From a virus: a stretch of DNA of 64,000 nt. The DNA is taken from positions 96,001 to 160,000 of the IMG/VR virus record IMGVR_UViG_3300025405_000009; one strand, written 5' to 3'. Of this stretch, positions 18,305-52,005 are shown piece after piece (the stretch's first letter is position 1; each line of letters opens with the position of its first letter). The notes below the pieces were generated by a model, which made no database searches, was not told the origin of the DNA, and saw nothing but the letters and a program-made list of their open reading frames with translations. The translations under genes were made by a program, and so were the position numbers.

Positions 18305-19144
18305 ATGCAGGCACAAAGCTATTATTTTGAAACAAAGGACTTAATAACTCAATTTGTTGCAGCTTTTGATGATATTATTATCAAAAGATATGATAAAAAT
18401 CGTAACGCAATAAATAGCGTTCAAGTCCGTTATGTTTACTCTCCAAAACAGAGAGTTATGTATGATTTAGTAAATCTTGCACAAAATATTACAGTTCCTG
18501 TTGTAGCCATAAATATGACATCTATATCAAGAGATGTTAATAGAGTGTTTAATAAGCTAGATGGGTATTATGTACCAAGAGGCCTATCAGATGGCGATGG
18601 ACAACCATCAACAGCATTTTATAATTCACCAGTCCCTGTTAATATAAGCGTTTCAATGTCTATATTGACTAAGTTTCAATCAGACATGGACCAAATTATC
18701 TCAAATTTTGTCCCATATAATAATCCTTATATTATACTGTCATGGAAACTTCCAGAAGCACTTGTATCAAATGGATTCACTACACCACAAGAAATTCGTA
18801 GTGAAGTTCTCTGGGACGGTAATATTAATTTAACATATCCAACTGATATAAATGCTACTGAAAAATATAAAGTCGTTGCCGATACAAGTTTTATTATAAA
18901 AGGATGGTTATTTCCTGCTGTGCGCAATGATGCTGGAAATATTTATTATATTAATAATAATTTTCATAATGTGGGGTTAGTATCTAGTGTAGCGGAGTTA
19001 ACAGCGCGATCATATACATATCCTTTATCTTCCGGTCTCATTAGTGATATGGAAACTGTATCAATTTCCGGTAATCCACAAATATCTAATATATTTTATA
19101 ATAATCAGGGAGCTAACTCACCAACATATATCCCTTTAGTTTAA
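18305..19144 (+). CDS. Tail sheath stabilizer/terminator (T4 gp15-like)
   Basis: TQFVAAFDDIII.RY, VRYVYSPKQR, PVPVNISVSMSILTKFQSDMDQIISNFVPY; TAAATA 7 nt upstream. Confidence 0.75.
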   Translation: MQAQSYYFETKDLITQFVAAFDDIIIKRYDKNRNAINSVQVRYVYSPKQRVMYDLVNLAQNITVPVVAINMTSISRDVNRVFNKLDGYYVPRGLSDGDGQPSTAFYNSPVPVNISVSMSILTKFQSDMDQIISNFVPYNNPYIILSWKLPEALVSNGFTTPQEIRSEVLWDGNINLTYPTDINATEKYKVVADTSFIIKGWLFPAVRNDAGNIYYINNNFHNVGLVSSVAELTARSYTYPLSSGLISDMETVSISGNPQISNIFYNNQGANSPTYIPLV

Positions 19145-44176: not shown

Positions 44177-44184
44177 AATTTAAT

Positions 44185-44268
44185 GGGTAGATACCGAAGC
44201 TGGACAAACGGGGAAGACTGTAAATCTTCTGGCTATTGCCTTCAGTGGTTCGAATCCACTTCTGCCCA
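44185..44268 (+). tRNA. tRNA-Tyr(GTA), class II; CCA not encoded
   Basis: Acceptor GGGTAGA/TCTGCCC, anticodon arm GAAGA-CTGTAAA-TCTTC, long variable arm, GTTCGAATC. Confidence 0.95.
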
Positions 44269-44286
44269 GACTAAATAATATATGCT

Positions 44287-44526
44287 ATGACTCTTATGGA
44301 TCACAATCCACCACATAATACAGCACCTATAATAGATCGCAATACCATTAAATGGAGTGGGTATTTTTCAACGTCAGAGCAGGCAGATGAGCATTTAAAA
44401 GAACAGACTAAGCATCATGCAGAAAACGAAAATAAATTGGTCGTAAGTGCTAAGAAAGAGTTTGTAAACAGACATTTTAAAGGATATTTTCTTTATCGCT
44501 TTGTTGTAATATTAACAAATAAATGA
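44287..44526 (+). CDS. Hypothetical protein
   Basis: 79 aa; TAAATA 9 nt upstream. Confidence 0.55.
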   Translation: MTLMDHNPPHNTAPIIDRNTIKWSGYFSTSEQADEHLKEQTKHHAENENKLVVSAKKEFVNRHFKGYFLYRFVVILTNK

Positions 44527-44735
44527 ACTTTAAAAAGATATTTGAATCATTATTAACCGAACACATGCACTCTAAACAGAAGGCAGGCTATGTGGCTCAT
44601 CCTGTTGATGGTCATCGCTGTGATGTATGTACGATGTGGAGACCTCCAAATAAGTGTTCTGCCGTATTCGGTGTTATTAAACCTGATGGTTGGTGTAAGT
44701 GGTGGAAGAGAACACATAGAAAGGATAGAAAATAA
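44523..44735 (+). CDS. High-potential iron-sulfur protein (HiPIP)-like, no Tat signal
   Basis: KQKAGYVAHPVDGHRCDVCTMWRPPNKCSAVFGVIKPDGWCKWW: four Cys in HiPIP spacing plus the conserved Tyr and GWC. Confidence 0.8.
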   Translation: MNFKKIFESLLTEHMHSKQKAGYVAHPVDGHRCDVCTMWRPPNKCSAVFGVIKPDGWCKWWKRTHRKDRK

Positions 44736-45370
44736 TGAAGGTATACCTCGACATGGATGGGTTACTTGCTAACCTTTTTGATACAGTTTCCATGGGAATG
44801 ATTGGTAAGCATTATAAAGCACTAACGGAACCTGAAAAAGAACATACACGTCAAATTTGGACAGATAGAGAAGGTAAAGCTAAAGAGTTCTTTCAAAAAC
44901 AGGGTGGAGTTAAGAAGTTTTTTGCCGATCTTCCTACTTTTGGCCCTCTAACTGACGCTATTATTAACACAGTTGTGAAAGAGGTAGGAGGTTATAGTAT
45001 TTGCTCCTGTCCTGCTGGTATTGATGAACAGGCTTCAGAAGCTGGAAAGAGAATTTGGATTCATAAGCACCTTAACCCACTTCCTGATGAAATGTCCTTT
45101 GTTAGAGATAAAACTATTAACGCAATTAATAAAGAAACAGGTAAGCCCAATGTTCTTATTGATGATTTTCCAAAATATATTAAAGAATGGAAAGCAGCTG
45201 GTGGTATTCCAATAGAAATGCGTACAGATAGCTTGAATAGTCCAGAAGAAGTAAGAGCATTTCTCACTAAGAAACTTAATGCAGCTAAAGAACAAATTGA
45301 TGGTGTACAACCTGAACCTAAAATACCAACGTTTGAGCAATACGTAAGAAAAGTGTTGCATTCTCTCTAA
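44735..45370 (+). CDS. HAD-family 5'(3')-deoxyribonucleotidase-like protein
   Basis: VYLDMDGLLA, FFADLP, GKRIWI, VLIDD. Confidence 0.8.
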   Translation: MKVYLDMDGLLANLFDTVSMGMIGKHYKALTEPEKEHTRQIWTDREGKAKEFFQKQGGVKKFFADLPTFGPLTDAIINTVVKEVGGYSICSCPAGIDEQASEAGKRIWIHKHLNPLPDEMSFVRDKTINAINKETGKPNVLIDDFPKYIKEWKAAGGIPIEMRTDSLNSPEEVRAFLTKKLNAAKEQIDGVQPEPKIPTFEQYVRKVLHSL

Positions 45371-45390
45371 ATGCATCCATAATTATTTGT

Positions 45391-46011
45391 ATGGGTATGT
45401 TTGATATAATTTTTATAAAGAAAGCACTTCCTCTTAATAAAGAGCTTAAAGCTCTAAAAGATATTAAGTGGGAAGAATGTGACTTTCAGACTAAAGATCT
45501 TGAAAATTCTCTCTCTATCTACGAAGTTACTAAGACCGGTAAACTTCGCTACCAAAAAGTAGAGAGGGAGTGGGTAGATGATGAAGGGGCTTTTTTTAAG
45601 GGGTATATGAAAGAGGTATCTTCTAAGTGGGTTGATACCAAGCATACAGGTACAGTAAGATTTTATCATAATTTTTCTACTAATAAATCAAACGTTAATA
45701 TTTTTTCAGATGTAATTGAAGATGATACCGATCTTGATGGATATGATTGGTGGGTGGAGTTTGAAGCTGAATTCGTAAAAGGTAAGCTTACTGAAATTAC
45801 TCTTACTGAAGCAAAGAAAGAACCTGCTAAGATTCGTATTATTCAAAATATTGAATGGGCTAAGGATCTTAAGAAAAAGGAATCAACTCTTCATCGTCGT
45901 ATTATAAAATTTTTACGTAAGTCAAAGATTTACCGCAAATTGATTAGTAGTTTATTAAAGCTTAATTCAATTATCTCTAGTAAGATTAGTTGGGTTCTTT
46001 ATAGACTCTAA
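45391..46011 (+). CDS. Conserved phage hypothetical protein
   Basis: MGMFD..., FQTKDLEN, EFEAEFVKGKL; TAATTA 5 nt upstream. Confidence 0.65.
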   Translation: MGMFDIIFIKKALPLNKELKALKDIKWEECDFQTKDLENSLSIYEVTKTGKLRYQKVEREWVDDEGAFFKGYMKEVSSKWVDTKHTGTVRFYHNFSTNKSNVNIFSDVIEDDTDLDGYDWWVEFEAEFVKGKLTEITLTEAKKEPAKIRIIQNIEWAKDLKKKESTLHRRIIKFLRKSKIYRKLISSLLKLNSIISSKISWVLYRL

Positions 46012-46033
46012 TTGTTCTTTGATAAATAATTTT

Positions 46034-46484
46034 GGGGGCGTACTGGTTTCGACTTATACTCGAAGTTTGTATGGCACGTAGTGGTTAATCAGTTGGCCAC
46101 TTTAAAAAGCTGATTAAAAACATAAATGCAGAAGATAACTCTGACGCTATCCTTGCGGAAGCATTGTATTGTCTCGAGAACGCTGACGAAATCCTCGCCA
46201 GCTTTGAAGAGCCAGCACTCCTAGCTGCCTAAGGAACCAAAAGATAATCCTATTAAAGCTTTTGGAAATAAAAATAGGTTTAGAAGGTCTTGTGATTCTT
46301 AGAAAATTGAGTGCAAGCGGTGGTATGTGGTCGTTAATCACACATACAGGTAGGACTCTAAACATGGATAGGTCGCTAGTGCCTGGTTACCTTTAGTCAA
46401 CCAAAGTACGAAAGCTAGCTAAGCGTGTAGAAGTATAAATAGAAAAGTATAAACACAGGGGTTCGACTCCCCTCGCCTCCACCA
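46034..46484 (+). ncRNA. ssrA: tmRNA with tag AEDNSDAILAEALYCLENADEILASFEEPALLAA (46128-46232)
   Basis: 5' GGGGGCGTACTGGTTTCGAC; 3' GGGTTCGACTCCCCTCGCCTCCACCA; resume context ATAAATGCA; tag ends LLAA-TAA. Confidence 0.95.
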
Positions 46485-46495
46485 TTTTATTTTAC

Positions 46496-46569
46496 GGGGA
46501 ATTAGCTCAGTTGGTAGTAGCGATAGCTTTGCAAGCTATAGGTCAGCGGTTCGATCCCGCTATTCTCCA
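46496..46569 (+). tRNA. tRNA-Ala(TGC)
   Basis: Acceptor GGGGAAT/ATTCTCC with G3:U70, loop TTTGCAA, GTTCGATC. Confidence 0.95.
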
Positions 46570-46590
46570 CAATTTTTATTAAATATATAC

Positions 46591-46953
46591 ATGGCTTCTA
46601 CACGTTTAAGCGCAGCTCGCGATATAGCACATGGTAAATTTCCAGCAACAGGAGTGAAACGATCTCCTAAATGGGCTGCTGTACGCAAGGAACATCTTAA
46701 GAATAATCCAAAATGTGCAATTTGTGAAGGTACAGAAAAACTTAATGTACATCATATTAAACCATTTCATTTACATCCGGAATTAGAACTCGATCCAAGT
46801 AACTTTATTACTCTTTGTGAAAGTGCAAGTTATGGTATTATCTGTCATATTCTTGTTGGTCATTTAGGTGATTATAAAAACATAAATCCAAATTCTGTAG
46901 AAGATGCTAAAATTTGGAACGCTAAATTAAAAGAAGATCATTTTCAGAAATAG
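46591..46953 (+). CDS. HNH endonuclease
   Basis: CAICE...NVHHIKPF...DPSNFITLCE...CHILVGH. Confidence 0.85.
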   Translation: MASTRLSAARDIAHGKFPATGVKRSPKWAAVRKEHLKNNPKCAICEGTEKLNVHHIKPFHLHPELELDPSNFITLCESASYGIICHILVGHLGDYKNINPNSVEDAKIWNAKLKEDHFQK

Positions 46954-46999
46954 CTTGCAGGAACCAATACTTGGTATTAATATAGATAAATAAATTAAC

Positions 47000-47073
47000 G
47001 CCCGGTTAGTTCAATGGTAAAACGAGGGTTTTGTAAACCTTAGTCGTGAGTTCGATTCTCACACTGGGCTCCA
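47000..47073 (+). tRNA. tRNA-Thr(TGT)
   Basis: GCCCGGT/ACTGGGC-T-CCA; loop TTTGTAA. Confidence 0.95.
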
Positions 47074-47093
47074 TACTTGATCTTTTACATTTT

Positions 47094-47168
47094 ACGTCGG
47101 TGGTACATTGGCTGTGCAGCAGTCTCCAAAACTGCCTTAGGTAGGTTCGATTCCTACCCGGCGTGCCA
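47094..47168 (+). tRNA. tRNA-Trp(CCA)
   Basis: ACGTCGG/CCGGCGT-G-CCA; GCAGT-CTCCAAA-ACTGC. Confidence 0.95.
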
Positions 47169-47179
47169 TAAATAGAATT

Positions 47180-47310
47180 ATAGTAATCGGCAAAACCCTC
47201 TCTACAACTGTTCGAAGAGTTGTATGCATGGAACCGGTTCTTCGTAAGTTCATACAAAACTAGAACATAATCAAGGACGCTTGAGGTTTTTAGGACAAAG
47301 GAACTTACAT
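47180..47310 (+). ncRNA. Candidate compact structured RNA (4-way junction plus pseudoknot)
   Basis: No ORF; helices AAAACC/GGTTTT, TACAACT/AGTTGTA, GTTCT/AGAAC, TCAAG/CTTGA, GTAAGTTC/GAACTTAC; TAAATA at 47169. Confidence 0.45.
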
Positions 47311-47317
47311 TAATTTC

Positions 47318-47389
47318 CGCAGAGTAGAGAACTGGTATCTCGTCACGCTCATAACGTGAAGGCAGTGGGTTCGATTCCCACCTCTGCCA
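47318..47389 (+). tRNA. tRNA-Met(CAT) with partial initiator features
   Basis: C1:C72 mismatch, A11:U24, anticodon arm TCACG-CTCATAA-CGTGA. Confidence 0.9.
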
Positions 47390-47398
47390 ATTTTTTAG

Positions 47399-47450
47399 TT
47401 GCCACTTCCTTATTCAGGCATTATATTAAAAGAATAAGAATTGATCTTTG
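47399..47450 (+). promoter_or_regulatory. Sigma70-like promoter plus boxA-like TTGATCTTTG
   Basis: TTGCCA-N17-TATATT (47399-47427); TTGATCTTTG at 47441. Confidence 0.6.
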
Positions 47451-47469
47451 ATAGTACATTTTGAAATTT

Positions 47470-47949
47470 GACTAGGCGCAAGTCTTAAAAGCTAAAAGAC
47501 TCCCGCGATAGGTGATAGCGAAGCATTCGGCCGAGTGAACGTGTAGCCTATAAGATAAATCTCCGTGAAAGCGAATGAGGTTTTCTAGTCATACAAATTA
47601 AGTTCCCACGTTGTAGGTATAATCCGTGGGAGAGATACGTTGAGTTGTCTGTTGGTATGTTAGTAGACGTATTTTCATAGGAGGAGCCAAAAACTTACAT
47701 ACAGCTACGATCCCTTGCTTTAATAAACACAGACTGGTCGACGAGCTGGCTCCATGCCGGCACTCGATGAGGAGAGAACAAAATCCGGAACAAAAGCTTT
47801 TCAAACACCACAAATTTTCATATAATGCTACCATGATGTCGGTCTCAAGTCCGAGCGATAGGAGATGGCCTCTCCTACGAAACGCAGAGAGAATGAAAAC
47901 ATAGACTGCAGTCTGCCCCTATTACCCTGATCAGGTAGTAGGGGTTTTC
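47470..47949 (+). ncRNA. Candidate large structured ncRNA (~480 nt)
   Basis: No plus-strand ORF in the track, GC-richer than flanking intergenic DNA, at least 8 helices, own promoter, terminal hairpin. Confidence 0.7.
47916..47948 (+). terminator. Terminator-like hairpin closing the ncRNA candidate
   Basis: CCCCTATTACC/GGTAGTAGGGG stem followed by TTTT. Confidence 0.7.
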
Positions 47950-47976
47950 TGTGTTCTAGAATGATTAAATAATTAT

Positions 47977-48105
47977 ATGCTCGATCCACTGGAAGCTGCT
48001 ATGGTGGGTTTATTTACTTTAGGTTTTATAACAGCTTATGCTATAATGTATTCTACTAAGTTGGTAACTTTACTTGCAAAGTATTTTAAGGGAATCAAAA
48101 AATAA
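47977..48105 (+). CDS. Small membrane peptide (MLDPLEAAMVGLF..., 42 aa)
   Basis: Manually found; TAAATA 5 nt upstream; one TM and a basic tail. Confidence 0.55.
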   Translation: MLDPLEAAMVGLFTLGFITAYAIMYSTKLVTLLAKYFKGIKK

Positions 48106-48108
48106 TTC

Positions 48109-48137
48109 TTGAATTCCTTTTCGAGTGCCCATATTAT
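48109..48137 (+). promoter_or_regulatory. Sigma70-like promoter
   Basis: TTGAAT-N17-TATTAT, 9 nt before the ATG at 48147. Confidence 0.6.
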
Positions 48138-48146
48138 AAAGGGGTA

Positions 48147-49250
48147 ATGAGCACAACAAACACACTAGACAAGTTCGTCGCCAAGAGCAACGATATTCGC
48201 CAGACGCTGCAAGGTTATACCCTCGCTCCTCTGGATATTGAGTCCATCGAGAAGAACGGAAATAACTTCTCTTACAATAACAACCGCCTATCCAGTACAT
48301 CTCTTAAGAGTCTCCTTGGAGTTCTTGGAGTTAAGGATCAGCTCGTTAACGAGATTAAGGATGACAGCTCTCAGTGGGCTCCTCTCCATAATGCTCTTAC
48401 GAACATTAAGAAGAACAAGCGTGTAACCGCGATTGTTAATAACCACAACAATGAGATTGTTAATCTCTTCGATCGCCCTATCAAGGAAGAGCGTCAGATT
48501 GACCTCTCAGCTGGTCTCCGTTATACAGAGGCCTTCTTGAAGGACAACGAGAATAATCTCGAACTTCGTGACTTTAACTTTGATCCTACTAACATTAGTA
48601 TTGGAATTAACTTCAAGAACCCTGATTCTGATATTGACGTATTCGGAGATGGTCATGATATGTGGAAGGGTGGTTTTGGAATGAACTTCTCTCTCAACAA
48701 GTCTCAGTTCTATCCCTATCTCCTCCGTTTGGTTTGCTCCAATGGAATGACCGCTGTTCATCGTATGGCCCAGCGTTTCATCGATAGTGCTGACTTCAGT
48801 CAGAAGACCTTCGATACTCAGGTTCGTAAGTTCCTAACTGGTGACGCTCTTCGTCAGGAGATTACGTCAAGTGCTAATCGCCTTAGGGATAACAATGCCT
48901 CCCTTAGAGAATTCAATGCTGCTCGTAGTATTACGATGAAGTATGATAAGGAGCTAGCAGTAACTGCTTTCTCTGATCACGAGATTCGTTCACGGTATAA
49001 AGAGGTCGGTATTGATCTTAATAAATCGAAGGGTACTCGTTGGCAGTCAACGGCTAACTCGAACGTTAATGCTTACGATCTCTTTAATAAGATCACAAAC
49101 GTTGCTACTCACAGTGTCTCTGACGAGAACGTAGCATTCAGGATGGAGCTCAACCGACTTGCCTCTGAGTTGTTCTTCAAGGGACCAGACTTCGCTTCAA
49201 TCGCACCGGATCCATTCCGTGAGGTTGCACCAGCAAATCTTAACGCCTAA
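48147..49250 (+). CDS. DUF932-like phage protein
   Basis: YLLRLVCSNGM hallmark, NAYDLFNKITNVATH; host-like codon usage. Confidence 0.7.
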   Translation: MSTTNTLDKFVAKSNDIRQTLQGYTLAPLDIESIEKNGNNFSYNNNRLSSTSLKSLLGVLGVKDQLVNEIKDDSSQWAPLHNALTNIKKNKRVTAIVNNHNNEIVNLFDRPIKEERQIDLSAGLRYTEAFLKDNENNLELRDFNFDPTNISIGINFKNPDSDIDVFGDGHDMWKGGFGMNFSLNKSQFYPYLLRLVCSNGMTAVHRMAQRFIDSADFSQKTFDTQVRKFLTGDALRQEITSSANRLRDNNASLREFNAARSITMKYDKELAVTAFSDHEIRSRYKEVGIDLNKSKGTRWQSTANSNVNAYDLFNKITNVATHSVSDENVAFRMELNRLASELFFKGPDFASIAPDPFREVAPANLNA

Positions 49251-49263
49251 GTAAATAAAGTAA

Positions 49264-49312
49264 ACCGGGCGGGCCTCTGCACATGCAAGCTATCTCACGC
49301 CCGGTCTTTATT
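49264..49312 (+). terminator. Hairpin (terminator or processing signal)
   Basis: ACCGGGCG/CGCCCGGT stem followed by CTTTATTT. Confidence 0.55.
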
Positions 49313-49313
49313 T

Positions 49314-49388
49314 GGAGATGTAGCATAATGGCAATGCACTTCTTTGCCAAAGAAGATACTGCCGGTTCGAGCCCGGTCATCTCCTCCA
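49314..49388 (+). tRNA. tRNA-Gly(GCC)
   Basis: GGAGATG/CATCTCC-T-CCA; CTTCT-TTGCCAA-AGAAG. Confidence 0.95.
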
Positions 49389-49391
49389 TAC

Positions 49392-49466
49392 GGTCTCATC
49401 GTCTAACGGCTAGGACACGCGGTTTTCATCCGCGTAATCGGAGTTCGAGTCTCCGTGAGACTGCCA
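49392..49466 (+). tRNA. tRNA-Glu(TTC)
   Basis: GGTCTCA/TGAGACT-G-CCA; CGCGG-TTTTCAT-CCGCG. Confidence 0.95.
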
Positions 49467-49486
49467 GGAAACAATAAATAATACTG

Positions 49487-50062
49487 ATGTTAACGTTTGA
49501 ACAGTATTTTAATCAATCTGAATCACCAGTTGTTATAGTTGGTGGTATTCATGGTGATGAACCAGCTGGTAATATAGCTGCTAAAAAATATCAAGGTAGA
49601 GAAGGTATTATTGTAATAGCTGACGTTAATACAACTGGAGAGAGAAGACTAGATGGAGTAGATCCAAATAGACATTTTGACAAAAAAGATTCTCTCCCAA
49701 TTGAGGATGAAATCTTAGCTAAAATTGAAGAGTTAAAACCAAGGTTAGTTATCGCACTTCATGAAGATGATATAACAGATGAAGTTTATGCGTATTGTTC
49801 TCCAGGTATGAAAGATAAAGTTCAAGCTGTTTTAGCTGAATTAGGAGTACCGTTAGCAAAAACGGCAATAGGAGACAAAGCAGATAAGGGTGTTATTGCC
49901 CGTGGTCATTTACCAACAGCAGGAACACTTGAGAAAGCATTGAGAAAACGTGATATCCCTAGTGTAACCATAGAGACACCTATTAAGTCATATAGCTTAG
50001 AGGATAGAGTGAAGTTACAAATACAAATAGTAAACGGATTACTTAAATCTGTTAATAGATAA
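49487..50062 (+). CDS. M14-like Zn peptidase/deacylase (AstE/AspA/MpaA-like) with capsid-targeting-like N-terminus
   Basis: GGIHGDEPAG, RR.DGVDPNRHF, ALHED, TIET; N-terminus MLTFEQYFNQSE. Confidence 0.8.
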   Translation: MLTFEQYFNQSESPVVIVGGIHGDEPAGNIAAKKYQGREGIIVIADVNTTGERRLDGVDPNRHFDKKDSLPIEDEILAKIEELKPRLVIALHEDDITDEVYAYCSPGMKDKVQAVLAELGVPLAKTAIGDKADKGVIARGHLPTAGTLEKALRKRDIPSVTIETPIKSYSLEDRVKLQIQIVNGLLKSVNR

Positions 50063-50210
50063 GCCTTCTTAAATCTAATAGCTTAAAGTCTACTTCCTTA
50101 CCGTAACGCTCTTCAAGTTTTTTTATAGCATCTTCTTTTGAGATAGCCGTAACATTAAGAATTACAGGATTCTTATCTGTTATTACCTCAAAAATATATT
50201 CCGTTAGCAT
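50052..50210 (-). CDS. Small hypothetical protein (MLTEYIFEV..., 52 aa)
   Basis: Manually found; shares a palindromic TAAATATTTA promoter with 50228. Confidence 0.5.
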   Translation of the reverse strand: MLTEYIFEVITDKNPVILNVTAISKEDAIKKLEERYGKEVDFKLLDLRRLIY

Positions 50211-50227
50211 ATGATTAAATATTTAAT

Positions 50228-50500
50228 GTGCAGATTACGAAAAATGCCATTGAAATTTGTGGGTTCCTTATGTCTTTATGTTGGTCAATAAGTTGGTTTC
50301 CTCAGCTCTATAAGCTTTTTAAAACAAAATCAGCACATGATTTTTCTCCATGGATGTTATTTTTAGTTCTCACAGGGTATATCTTTGCAATGCTTTACCT
50401 GTTCAATACAAGCTTTCAACTCTGGTTATTTGTAAATTATTGTTTTGGCATTATTTGTTATATTATTACATTATTTTTTTATTTTCGTTATAAAAAATAA
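50228..50500 (+). CDS. SemiSWEET/PQ-loop membrane protein
   Basis: SWFPQLYKLFKTKSAHDFSPWM; three TM helices; 90 aa. Confidence 0.8.
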   Translation: MQITKNAIEICGFLMSLCWSISWFPQLYKLFKTKSAHDFSPWMLFLVLTGYIFAMLYLFNTSFQLWLFVNYCFGIICYIITLFFYFRYKK

Positions 50501-50534
50501 TTGATTTATACAATATTATCTATATACTTTATAT

Positions 50535-51146
50535 ATGAAGTGGTTACTAATCTTGTTGCTAAGCCTAGCATCACTTAAAGCACAGACCTCTGTAGCGTAT
50601 TCTCCAGTCTATGGATATGATACAATGTCCTTTCCTGGTGGATGGTGTCTAGTAACTAACCCGTTTATTAATCCTCCTATCTATAGTGGCAATGCTATAG
50701 TAGATGGAGAGACATTTACAATTAATAATGTCATAACAAATAATATTATAGACATTCCTCATTATATAGAAGTTACAAGTACAAACTATAATGGATATGT
50801 TTTTGATATAACTACAAATACACAAAACATTATTACAGCTACAAATGTACCAGCTGAGCTTCAAGGACAAACTTTAGCAATTAGTATTAGACAACATACT
50901 ACTCTTCAACAGTTTGTTTCTAATTCTACAGGATTTCAAGACTACTCTGATGCTCTCTCTACCCCTGATGGTAATGGAGGGTGTGTAACGTACATTTATA
51001 TTTCAAACGGAATAGTAGCTGGAGACTTTGTAACACCAGCTGATAATACTATTCTCTATCCAGGGGAAGGACTAATTATCAATAATAGTGGAAATATTAG
51101 CTTTACCTTTTGTGGAGAGCTAGTATATACTAATGATATCAAATAA
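50535..51146 (+). CDS. Secreted beta-rich protein resembling the Verrucomicrobia TIGR02597 family
   Basis: Signal peptide MKWLLILLLSLASLKA; SPVYGYDTMSFPGG..VTNPF, YIEV, IRQHTTL, ILYPGEG, FCGE. Confidence 0.55.
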   Translation: MKWLLILLLSLASLKAQTSVAYSPVYGYDTMSFPGGWCLVTNPFINPPIYSGNAIVDGETFTINNVITNNIIDIPHYIEVTSTNYNGYVFDITTNTQNIITATNVPAELQGQTLAISIRQHTTLQQFVSNSTGFQDYSDALSTPDGNGGCVTYIYISNGIVAGDFVTPADNTILYPGEGLIINNSGNISFTFCGELVYTNDIK

Positions 51147-51154
51147 CGGATAAA

Positions 51155-51194
51155 GGTTTATTGCACACATAAATAATAACGGATGCAATAAACC
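51155..51194 (+). promoter_or_regulatory. Hairpin with late promoter in its loop, gating the HNH gene
   Basis: GGTTTATTGCA/TGCAATAAACC perfect 11-bp stem; TAAATA at 51170-51175; ATG 3 nt after the stem. Confidence 0.7.
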
Positions 51195-51197
51195 ACT

Positions 51198-51710
51198 ATG
51201 AAATCTAAACTAGAACCTTTTAAAGAAGATGTAATAAAAATGTATGTTGATGAAAAATTAACATGCAAACAAATAGGATTAAAATTTAAAATAAGACCAG
51301 GGCCTGTTTCAAGTTTTCTTATTAAAAATAATGTAAAGCTACGTAATGCTGGTCAACAGAAAGGTAGACCCGGTACGAATAAAGGAAAGAAATTTGTAGA
51401 ACGTACATTGGCATACAATACACAACTTATTGAAAGCGGTGAATATAAAAAACTTCACGAAGCAGGTATAAGGAGCCGTATACGTAAATATCTAATTAAC
51501 AAATATGGACATAAATGTCAAATATGTGGTCTGTCTGAATGGAGAGGACATGCTATACCTCTTGTATGCGATCACATAGACGGATCTGCTAAAAATTGTG
51601 AATTAGAGAATTTTAGAGTGATTTGTAATAATTGCGACTCTATACTACCTACATATAAAGGTAAAAATAGAGGCAGAGGTAGAAAACTTAACGGGAGCGT
51701 GACTGAGTGA
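51198..51710 (+). CDS. HNH homing endonuclease with N-terminal HTH
   Basis: KCQICGLSEW...LVCDHIDG..KNCELENFRVICNNCDS..TYKGKN; overlaps the tRNA by 18 nt. Confidence 0.85.
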   Translation: MKSKLEPFKEDVIKMYVDEKLTCKQIGLKFKIRPGPVSSFLIKNNVKLRNAGQQKGRPGTNKGKKFVERTLAYNTQLIESGEYKKLHEAGIRSRIRKYLINKYGHKCQICGLSEWRGHAIPLVCDHIDGSAKNCELENFRVICNNCDSILPTYKGKNRGRGRKLNGSVTE

Positions 51711-51783
51711 TTTAAAGTGATCGATTACTAATCGATTGAACCCTAATAAGGTTCCGTGGGTTTGAATCCCACCGCTCCTTCCA
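51693..51783 (+). tRNA. Class II tRNA with anticodon ACT (putative tRNA-Ser for AGT)
   Basis: GGGAGCG/CGCTCCT-T-CCA; ATCGA-TTACTAA-TCGAT; variable arm GAACC/GGTTC; T arm GTGGG-TTTGAAT-CCCAC. Confidence 0.85.
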
Positions 51784-51828
51784 TTTTTTTTCTTGACTTA
51801 ATACTTAAATACTCTAATATAAATGAAT

Positions 51829-51919
51829 GGACAGGTGGCAGAGTTGGTCTATTGCATCTGACTTGAAATCAGAAGTACCCGAAAGGGTACCGTGGGTTCG
51901 AATCCTACCCTGTCCGCCA
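51829..51919 (+). tRNA. tRNA-Ser(TGA)
   Basis: GGACAGG/CCTGTCC-G-CCA; TCTGA-CTTGAAA-TCAGA; long variable arm. Confidence 0.95.
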
Positions 51920-51927
51920 ATTTTAAC

Positions 51928-52005
51928 GCGTAGATGGCTGAGTGGTCAAAGGCAATCCTCTGCAAAAGGATAAAATCGCCAGTTCAAATCTGGCTCTACG
52001 CTCCA
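51928..52005 (+). tRNA. tRNA-Cys(GCA)
   Basis: GCGTAGA/TCTACGC-T-CCA; ATCCT-CTGCAAA-AGGAT. Confidence 0.95.

Follow-up and report, generated by a model that had tools for sequence, protein, structure and literature searches.

The DNA analysed here (the window, 64,000 nucleotides) comprises bases 96001-160000 of a 198,847-base virus record of IMG/VR, IMGVR_UViG_3300025405_000009, with an estimated completeness of 91%. Within it, the stretch 47399-47949 is non-coding and is conserved in 22 distinct uncultured viral or metagenome contigs. We consider that this stretch is a modular stable-RNA transcription unit of an uncultured phage of about 199 kb, built like a transfer RNA (tRNA) operon, with a probability of roughly 70%. 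From 5' to 3' it consists of a promoter-like site, a leader, a multi-branch RNA (module A), a core RNA of about 215 nucleotides (nt), a type-P1 twister ribozyme, a small hairpin and a terminator (Table 1). The core is very likely a genuine new structured RNA family: it is absent from Rfam 15 and is conserved across a clade of large uncultured phages beside transfer-messenger RNA (tmRNA) and tRNAs. With the twister, a known ribozyme class appears in a new subtype and a new context. The original prediction, made from the sequence alone, had placed a discrete structured non-coding RNA unit within the tRNA cluster, and the relatives agree with it in being conserved, structured and non-coding at this place.

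Locus, homologues and coding potential

Ten tRNA genes are clustered within 44184-52005 of the window, and a full-length tmRNA was found at 46034-46484 (114.8 bits, Rfam search). The stretch is flanked by tRNA-Met (47318-47389) and an open reading frame (ORF) of 42 codons (47977-48105), downstream of which there is a DUF932-like gene (48147-49250). A search with the DUF932-like protein led to nine related viral loci, and all nine carry DNA similar to 47595-47947 with 68-87% identity. Pattern scans were added, two on viral contigs and one on metagenome contigs, and their matches L026, L027 and L029 were discarded as unrelated sequences. In total, 22 distinct core sequences and 20 distinct twister sequences were obtained, all from viral or metagenome contigs. 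A blastn search against 50,697 GenBank phage records matched only tRNA-Met and gave nothing for core plus twister, and a core pattern scan of 185,579 prokaryotic species genomes found nothing.

Rfam searches of the window and of relative L008, both at gathering score and at E ≤ 10, returned only tRNAs, tmRNA and a weak twister match; RNase P, group I/II intron, GOLLD, ROOL, HEARO, manA, Y RNA and riboswitch models gave no match. No family was assigned to the stretch at gathering score, which bears out its predicted unannotated status. We found no published description of the core-twister combination in the literature searched.

Across 47500-47900 the G+C content is 0.43-0.46, and that of the flanking spacers is 0.27-0.35; no ORF is conserved among the 22 homologues, so that the stretch is indeed GC-richer than the intergenic DNA and without a credible protein gene, as had been predicted. 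The longest ORF over the stretch is on the minus strand (47598-47834, 78 amino acids), and nothing longer overlaps. That this frame encodes a small protein is hardly credible and already largely refuted, although about half of the homologues keep it open across almost all of the core. The other half have stops in it, single-base indels shift it between clades, none of the ORFs overlapping 47399-47949 has a Pfam match, and the substitutions are compensatory within RNA helices. Moreover, with about eight stop-equivalent triplets per 225 nt, one open frame among six is not unusual. The frame was rejected as a gene because of its breaks, its indels and the missing Pfam match.

The core RNA

The structure of the core was assembled from RNAalifold and an exhaustive search for conserved complementary runs on the 22-sequence alignment. 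As a control, the partner strands were displaced by 1-3 columns and pairing was recounted. In the alignment 99.1% of 860 cells are paired, compared with 36-49% in the slid controls, and 14 of 41 pairs changed on both sides. Covariation in homologues had been named as a check, and helices H1, H2 and H4 and the pseudoknot PKb do covary, with three or four such pairs in each. The core contains four covarying helices and two or three pseudoknots. Two of the originally predicted helices are found here: TCCCACG/CGTGGGA is the covarying H1, and GGAGCCA/TGGCTCC is present but invariant. A third, GTCT..AGAC, was right only in part: the segment 47647-47652 does pair, but over a long range with ACAGAC (47729-47734), with covariation, and the nearby AGAC is not its partner.

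Long unpaired blocks of the core are invariant, including GUUGUAGG, GUUGGU, GGAGCCAAA, GCUUUGAUCC and UGGCUCCAUGCC. This pattern suggests a specific tertiary fold or a binding partner. The core had no Rfam match at E ≤ 10, and it is single-copy in the 199-kb genome. A rough likeness to conserved regions of RNase P (GGCUCCAU, GAGGA..UCCGG) was rejected, as the order of elements differs and no model matched.

The twister ribozyme

The 3' quarter of the stretch holds a twister that the original prediction did not mention. The permissive Rfam search gave a twister-P1 match at 47819-47895 (25.8 bits, E 0.005), the only notable match of that search besides tRNAs, and twister-P1 is also the best Rfam match in relative L008. 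In the Rfam alignment the window sequence keeps the UAA junction, P2, the P4 hairpin with its L4 loop, AAA-P2'-GAGNG and P1. It departs from the consensus in L2 (ACC for GCC), L4 (GUCUCAAGUC for GUCCCAAGCC) and L1 (GAGAG for GAGGG). In the scheme from crystal structures, the L2 dinucleotide and two bulged L4 bases form T2, and the next three L4 bases form T1 with L1 (PMC5408937). Under this scheme the departures are compensatory, with G-C changed to A-U in T2 and the central C-G changed to U-A in T1.

In the alignment of the twisters (20 distinct sequences), the paired cells amount to 96.2%, and to 28-54% once partners are slid. Changes on both sides were seen in 10 of 17 pairs, the one in P2 being from G-C to A-U in L036 and L044. 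In the Rfam alignment, 47823-47825 corresponds to the triplet UAA of the consensus; across the 20 homologues its two A's never vary, and its U is retained in at least 90%. Cleavage is predicted at the U-A step of this UAA, as the twister literature places the scissile step in the UAA between P1 and P2 (PMC5408937, PMC6154101). The helix TAGGAGA/TCTCCTA of the original prediction is real and is the optional P5 stem, in place of which some relatives have a P3 insertion.

In 15 of the 20 cases the twister lies directly 3' of the core RNA. The same subtype also occurs between protein genes in L023, after an ORF in L012 and L017, and as AAUGCUAC..GGUCUCAAGUCC in two contigs of Lachnospiraceae metagenome-assembled genomes (L062:4364-4425 and L063:2075-2135), where it is within 1-2.5 kb of pistol ribozymes that pass the Rfam threshold, a ribozyme-cluster context. 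An identical twister core in the viral contig L022 passes the Rfam Twister-P5 model (RF02684), with 45.7 bits against a cut-off of 37.6. Because of the compensatory departures, the covariation, the pass in L022 and the further occurrences, we accept the element as a genuine twister subtype, and on these comparisons it is very likely real. A model built from these twisters found no second convincing copy in the 199-kb genome; a twister-like match at 18395-18467 (19 bits, E 0.2) was without the conserved loops and was dismissed as chance. In the published literature we found no description of a twister at the end of a phage stable-RNA or tRNA operon, just 5' of the terminator.

As a separate observation, the L023 twister (L023:2638-2707) lies between two ORFs, and the 3' strand of its P1, AGGGAGAA, overlaps AGGGAGA, which resembles a ribosome-binding site (RBS), just before an ATG. 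This copy may be a natural ribozyme insulator.

Promoter-like site, leader and terminator

The promoter-like hexamers TTGCCA-N17-TATATT, noticed in the original prediction, are kept at the same distance from the leader in seven relatives (L002, L003, L004, L006, L021, L036, L042). In L025, L053 and L054 their place upstream of the leader is taken by TATAAATA, the T4 late-promoter consensus. The fixed position in seven relatives and the replacement in three support a real start site that was rewired for timing. It suggests that the same RNA unit may be expressed at different times in different phages. An internal promoter-like sequence, TTTTCA-N17-TATAAT (47798-47826), is not conserved in relatives and was treated as chance.

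The leader directly precedes tRNA-Met in five relatives (L021, L042, L033, L053, L038). The composite motif TTGATCTTT..ACATTTT stands twice in the window, in the leader of the unit (47441-47462) and in the spacer immediately 5' of tRNA-Trp (47077-47093), while 0 copies are expected by chance. Part of this promoter-proximal motif is TTGATCTTTG, which had been called boxA-like and resembles boxA of E. coli. The occurrence before tRNA-Met in relatives and before tRNA-Trp in the window is more in line with a pre-tRNA leader than with an antitermination box, so that this label is probably not right. Most likely the leader 47430-47469 is a 5' leader of the pre-tRNA type or a processing spacer, and TTGATCTTT..ACATTTT may serve this phage group as a pre-tRNA leader or processing signal. 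A closing helix between leader and tail (GAAATTTG with CAAATTTTC) was dropped, since it is not conserved and L003 is without the tail segment.

At the 3' end, the hairpin AGAC-TGCA-GTCT is present as predicted, and relatives have GAGT-TCGA-ACTC in its place. The terminal hairpin with U-tract, predicted with 11 bp, was found with a 12-bp stem; its position is kept across relatives and its stem covaries, for example CCCCTATTACC / GGTAGTAGGGG against CCCTTACTACC / GGTGGTAAGGG.

Module A and the modular layout

Module A folds markedly better than shuffled sequences (minimum free energy z = -2.83, with 0 of 200 shuffles as good), and the consensus fold of seven homologues has 40 pairs, four of them compensated. 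This fold contains all of the helices GACTAG/CTAGTC, AGTCTT/AAGACT, ATAGG/CCTAT and CGT-GAAA-GCG that had been read from the sequence. In relatives, module A is swapped for a module A' with GACCG/CGGTC as its closing helix; some have in addition a module B, with GATTACTG/CAGTAATC in this role, and others have another module or none. The core follows immediately after tRNA-Met in L010 and L042, is without an adjacent twister in L012, and is separated from the twister by a tRNA-like sequence in L037. All modules are joined by AU-rich linkers (AATTTGAC, ACAAATTAAG; similar to AATTT or AATTAA), which resemble those 3' of tRNAs, including tRNA-Met. The linker between module A and the core may be a processing site. 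A single RNA of about 500 or 770 nt, as originally suggested, is not supported, because module A is exchanged and only the core of about 215 nt is constant. Joining the stretch with the upstream segment (47180-47949) is not supported either, since the conserved element at 47169-47317 lies upstream of the promoter.

Table 1. Features of the RNA unit in window coordinates.
Feature	Position	Strand	Basis or remark
Sigma-70-like promoter, TTGCCA-N17-TATATT	47399..47427	+	10/12 consensus positions; pattern-level evidence
Conserved leader containing TTGATCTTTGATAGTACATTTT	47430..47469	+	nearly invariant in relatives
Module A, multi-branch RNA closed by GACTAG/CTAGTC	47470..47590	+	folding, consensus fold, homologues
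AU-rich linker ATACAAATTAAG	47591..47602	+	between module A and core
Core RNA, ~215 nt	47597..47812	+	constant in all relatives; 22 distinct homologues
Core helix H1	47603-47610 / 47625-47632	+	covaries
Core pseudoknot PKa (H1 loop to CTTACA)	47612-47617 / 47694-47699	+	changes on one side, all wobble-compatible
Core helix H2	47633-47641 / 47666-47674	+	covaries
Core pseudoknot PKb (H2 loop to segment before H4)	47648-47652 / 47729-47733	+	covaries
Core pairing GGAGCC/GGCTCC	47683-47688 / 47748-47753	+	invariant
Core helix H4	47734-47741 / 47764-47771	+	covaries
Core helix H5	47771-47776 / 47797-47802	+	covaries: GGAGAG/CUUUUC, GGAAGGA/UCCUUUC, UUGAG/CUCAA
Palindrome TCCGGA, centre of A-rich H5 loop; candidate kissing site	47784..47789	+	variants in relatives
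Type-P1 twister self-cleaving ribozyme	47815..47899	+	Rfam match, covariation, architecture
Twister P1	47815-47821 / 47893-47899	+	6/6 pairs changed on both sides
Predicted scissile bond U47823^A47824	47823..47824	+	U-A step of UAA between P1 and P2
Twister P2	47826-47828 / 47884-47886	+	1/3 pairs changed on both sides
Twister T2	A47830 C47831 with G47849 U47850		100% paired in 20 sequences
Twister P4	47839-47841 / 47852-47854	+	3/3 pairs changed on both sides
Twister T1	C47844 U47845 C47846 with G47889 A47890 G47891		100% paired in 20 sequences
Twister optional P5	47859-47865 / 47871-47877	+	TAGGAGA/TCTCCTA
Palindromic small hairpin AGAC-TGCA-GTCT	47903..47914	+	read from sequence
Intrinsic terminator	47915..47955	+	12-bp stem, loop CTGATCA, U-rich tail; terminator scan

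Palindromic loops

The palindrome in the H5 loop differs among relatives, being UCCGGA, UUCCGGAA, AUACUAGUAU, UCGGCCGA or UUCUAGAA, and all five are perfect palindromes of 6-10 nt. It is isolated between non-complementary A-rich strands of 4-8 nt and therefore cannot fold on itself. Module A carries a similar element in a hairpin loop, TCGGCCGA at 47527-47534 (as RNA, UCGGCCGA). In L048 its place is taken by GTGCAC, whose RNA form GUGCAC is a dimerisation-site hexamer of human immunodeficiency virus 1 (HIV-1). Natural RNAs are documented to homodimerise through palindromic base-pairing (PMC12990946). We give an even chance to the view that the H5 palindromes are best explained by loop-loop pairing between two copies of the core.

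A point against this view is that palindromic tetranucleotides cap other hairpins too. The cap is GGCC in module A and in the P5 loop and TGCA in the small hairpin, while terminator loops, those of relatives included, have GATC, TGCA or CGCG. No kissing contact is expected at terminators, and these caps weaken the case for palindromes specific to self-pairing. They favour instead the possible, though less probable, explanation that the palindromes are not RNA-RNA contacts and the core acts as a monomer. The palindromes could then come from a bias at the DNA level (templated quasi-palindrome correction), from a preference for self-complementary hairpin tips, or from binding sites of a dimeric protein. 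Against this stands that, with non-complementary A-rich flanks, a tip of only 1-3 pairs would not be stable and a cruciform in the DNA is unlikely, and that all five variants stay perfect at lengths of 6-10 nt.

A further step, which we regard as doubtful, is to see in the core, with or without module A, a new class of phage RNA that self-assembles and whose subunit is released from the transcript by the twister. If this is true, the self-complementary loop in each module could give dimers or larger closed assemblies, a small counterpart of the RNA-only complexes of ROOL, GOLLD and manA, and it would be the first natural case of a self-cleaving ribozyme that matures a multimeric non-coding RNA. 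Self-assembly through the palindromic loops would also provide a natural example, of small size, of the RNA-only quaternary structures that have recently been recognised.

Proposed mechanism

The promoter-like site 47399-47427 is the probable start of transcription, and transcripts of the upstream tRNAs may also read through into the unit. The transcript would run through leader, module A, core and twister and end at the terminator 47915-47955. The twister would fold during transcription and cut between U47823 and A47824, so that twister, small hairpin and terminator would be removed from the upstream RNA. Of the two products, the 5' one would carry a 2',3'-cyclic phosphate at its end and the 3' one a 5'-OH at its start; the 3' end of the released RNA would lie about 10 nt beyond the conserved ACC tail of the core. 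The AU-rich linkers may be where host nucleases part the modules, as has to happen with tRNAs, so that the released product would hold the core of about 215 nt with or without module A. By analogy, the unit would follow the logic of theta ribozymes (PMC10879173) through a different ribozyme class. Our best guess on function is a stable RNA made by the phage that acts, jointly with the tRNA and tmRNA set, on translation in the host or on defence that targets RNA. The phage genome was searched for genes of RtcB ligase and of Ro60/TROVE and has neither, and so circularisation by a phage ligase and a Y-RNA role are without support. For most twister ribozymes the biological role is still called speculative (PMC5408937), and the present context offers the twister a testable job, the freeing of a stable RNA at the end of a phage tRNA-type operon.

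Several observations weigh against this reading of the unit. Comparison of folding energies with shuffles, one of the checks proposed originally, gave a divided result: the whole 510 nt folds modestly better (z = -1.99) and module A clearly so, but the core (z = -0.79) and the twister (z = -0.84) are no better when taken alone, and for these two the evidence beyond chance is therefore the covariation. The 22 core sequences fall into a few clades, which means that the compensated cells are not independent events. PKa changed on one side only, and GGAGCC/GGCTCC, being invariant within the set, has no covariation support; the same is true of T1 and T2, which are invariant within the family. The twister score is far below the Rfam twister-P1 gathering score of 67.2. 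Its P2 has only three Watson-Crick pairs (U-A, G-C, C-G) where the consensus has four: U47829 stands opposite C47883, and at this fourth position most relatives have U opposite U, with U-A in L023. Finally, the cut in L037 would leave about 14 nt behind the tRNA-like element, and it means that the ribozyme is not a precise maker of tRNA 3' ends.

Alternative explanations

One alternative, which we consider quite improbable, is a single continuous ornate RNA of about 500-770 nt of the GOLLD or ROOL kind, folded as one molecule. The stretch does lie beside phage tRNAs, like GOLLD and ROOL (PMC12286853), its helices and pseudoknots are numerous, and its self-complementary loops could support multimers; also, module A and the core may stay joined after transcription. 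Against one molecule, neither GOLLD, ROOL nor any other large-RNA model matched at E ≤ 10, module A is missing or replaced by unrelated modules beside a constant core, the 3' quarter consists of a self-cleaving ribozyme and a terminator outside any ornate fold, and 47169-47317 lies upstream of both the promoter and tRNA-Met.

The role of the twister could also be read in other ways. It might mainly be an insulator that parts the stable RNAs from a downstream read-through messenger RNA (mRNA), formed by the ORF at 47977 and the DUF932-like gene at 48147, and gives this mRNA a 5'-OH, with upstream maturation as a side effect. Such a role fits the L023 twister between protein genes with its overlap of the RBS-like sequence, the twister after an ORF in L012 and L017, and the clustering of twisters and pistols between genes in the Lachnospiraceae contigs. 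It is nevertheless improbable: in the window a strong-looking terminator stands within 20 nt of the twister and the downstream gene has its own conserved promoter-like site, and most of the 20 twisters directly follow the core RNA. Very improbable is that the core is a domain sensing a ligand or partner and controlling the twister as an allosteric ribozyme, with the 3' tail of the core supplying the 5' strand of P1. The tail of the core does run straight into P1, and the many invariant unpaired bases are aptamer-like, but L012 has a core without adjacent twister, L037 has a tRNA-like element between them, no regulated gene lies downstream within the unit, and P1 is reported to be dispensable for twister cleavage (PMC6154101).

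Neighbouring features

A conserved non-coding element at 47169-47317 lies between tRNA-Trp and tRNA-Met and is found directly upstream of the promoter in L021, L042 and L036. It has no Rfam match at E ≤ 10 and looks like a separate structured module. The tRNA-like insert of L037 (about L037:146-246, minus strand) has an acceptor stem and a T arm (GGTTCAAATCC) and was not called by ARAGORN; it may be an interrupted or degenerate sequence. Between tRNA-Ala and tRNA-Thr the window has an inserted ORF for an HNH endonuclease (PF01844, E 2e-5; 46591-46953). In tRNA-Met 47318-47389, the Rfam alignment marks the first and the last position of the acceptor stem as non-standard; bacterial initiator tRNAs characteristically have a mismatched 1-72 pair. 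The tmRNA gene of L003 may be interrupted by an intron, since a group I intron (RF00028, 84.6 bits) at L003:2260-2492 overlaps the match to tmRNA (within L003:1872-2492) in its 3' part.

Comparison with known systems

The twister shares with Rfam type-P1 twisters (RF03160, clan CL00120; Roth et al. 2014, reviewed in PMC5408937 and PMC6154101) the order P1, UAA, P2, L2, P4/L4, P2', P1', the U-A scissile step, the L4 pattern G-U-NNN-A-A-G-N-C, the complementarity of the T1/T2 double pseudoknot and the optional P5. It differs in the exchanged pairs of T2 and T1, the three-pair P2 and the score below the cut-off. Most members of the present family carry P5, whereas P5 is reported in about 1% of twisters (PMC6154101).

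Kissing-loop homodimers such as the HIV-1 dimerisation site and HYER1 (PMC12990946) likewise have a self-complementary sequence of 6-10 nt in a purine-rich hairpin loop. The H5 loop is larger (about 18 nt) than the classical ones, and dimerisation of the core is putative.

With GOLLD and ROOL (RF02032, RF03087; PMC12286853) the unit has in common that it is phage-associated, tRNA-adjacent, rich in pseudoknots and possibly self-associating. A divergent RNA of this type, as first proposed, is not supported: a 1-kb search gave no match to either model even at E ≤ 10, there is no likeness in sequence or structure, and the unit is modular, with about 215 nt conserved and a ribozyme in cis.

T4 rnaC (species 1) and rnaD (species 2) are also non-tRNA stable RNAs at the 3' end of a phage tRNA cluster, of about 120-140 nt and of unexplained function (annotation AF158101). 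No ribozyme is annotated beside them and they have no similarity to the core: the best match of the core model in the T4 tRNA region (8.1 bits, E 1.2) was outside rnaC and rnaD.

Theta ribozymes are documented as minimal ribozymes, similar to that of hepatitis delta virus (HDV), which cut behind phage tRNAs (PMC10879173). As there, a small self-cleaving ribozyme stands directly 3' of a stable RNA in a phage tRNA region, and by analogy its cut would free the 3' end of the upstream RNA without host nucleases. The differences are that the window has a twister and not an HDV-like ribozyme, that it follows a structured RNA other than tRNA, and that its cut would leave a tail of about 10-20 nt including the 5' strand of P1, not an exact tRNA 3' end. 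The phage of the window also lies outside the gut-phage set of PMC10879173.

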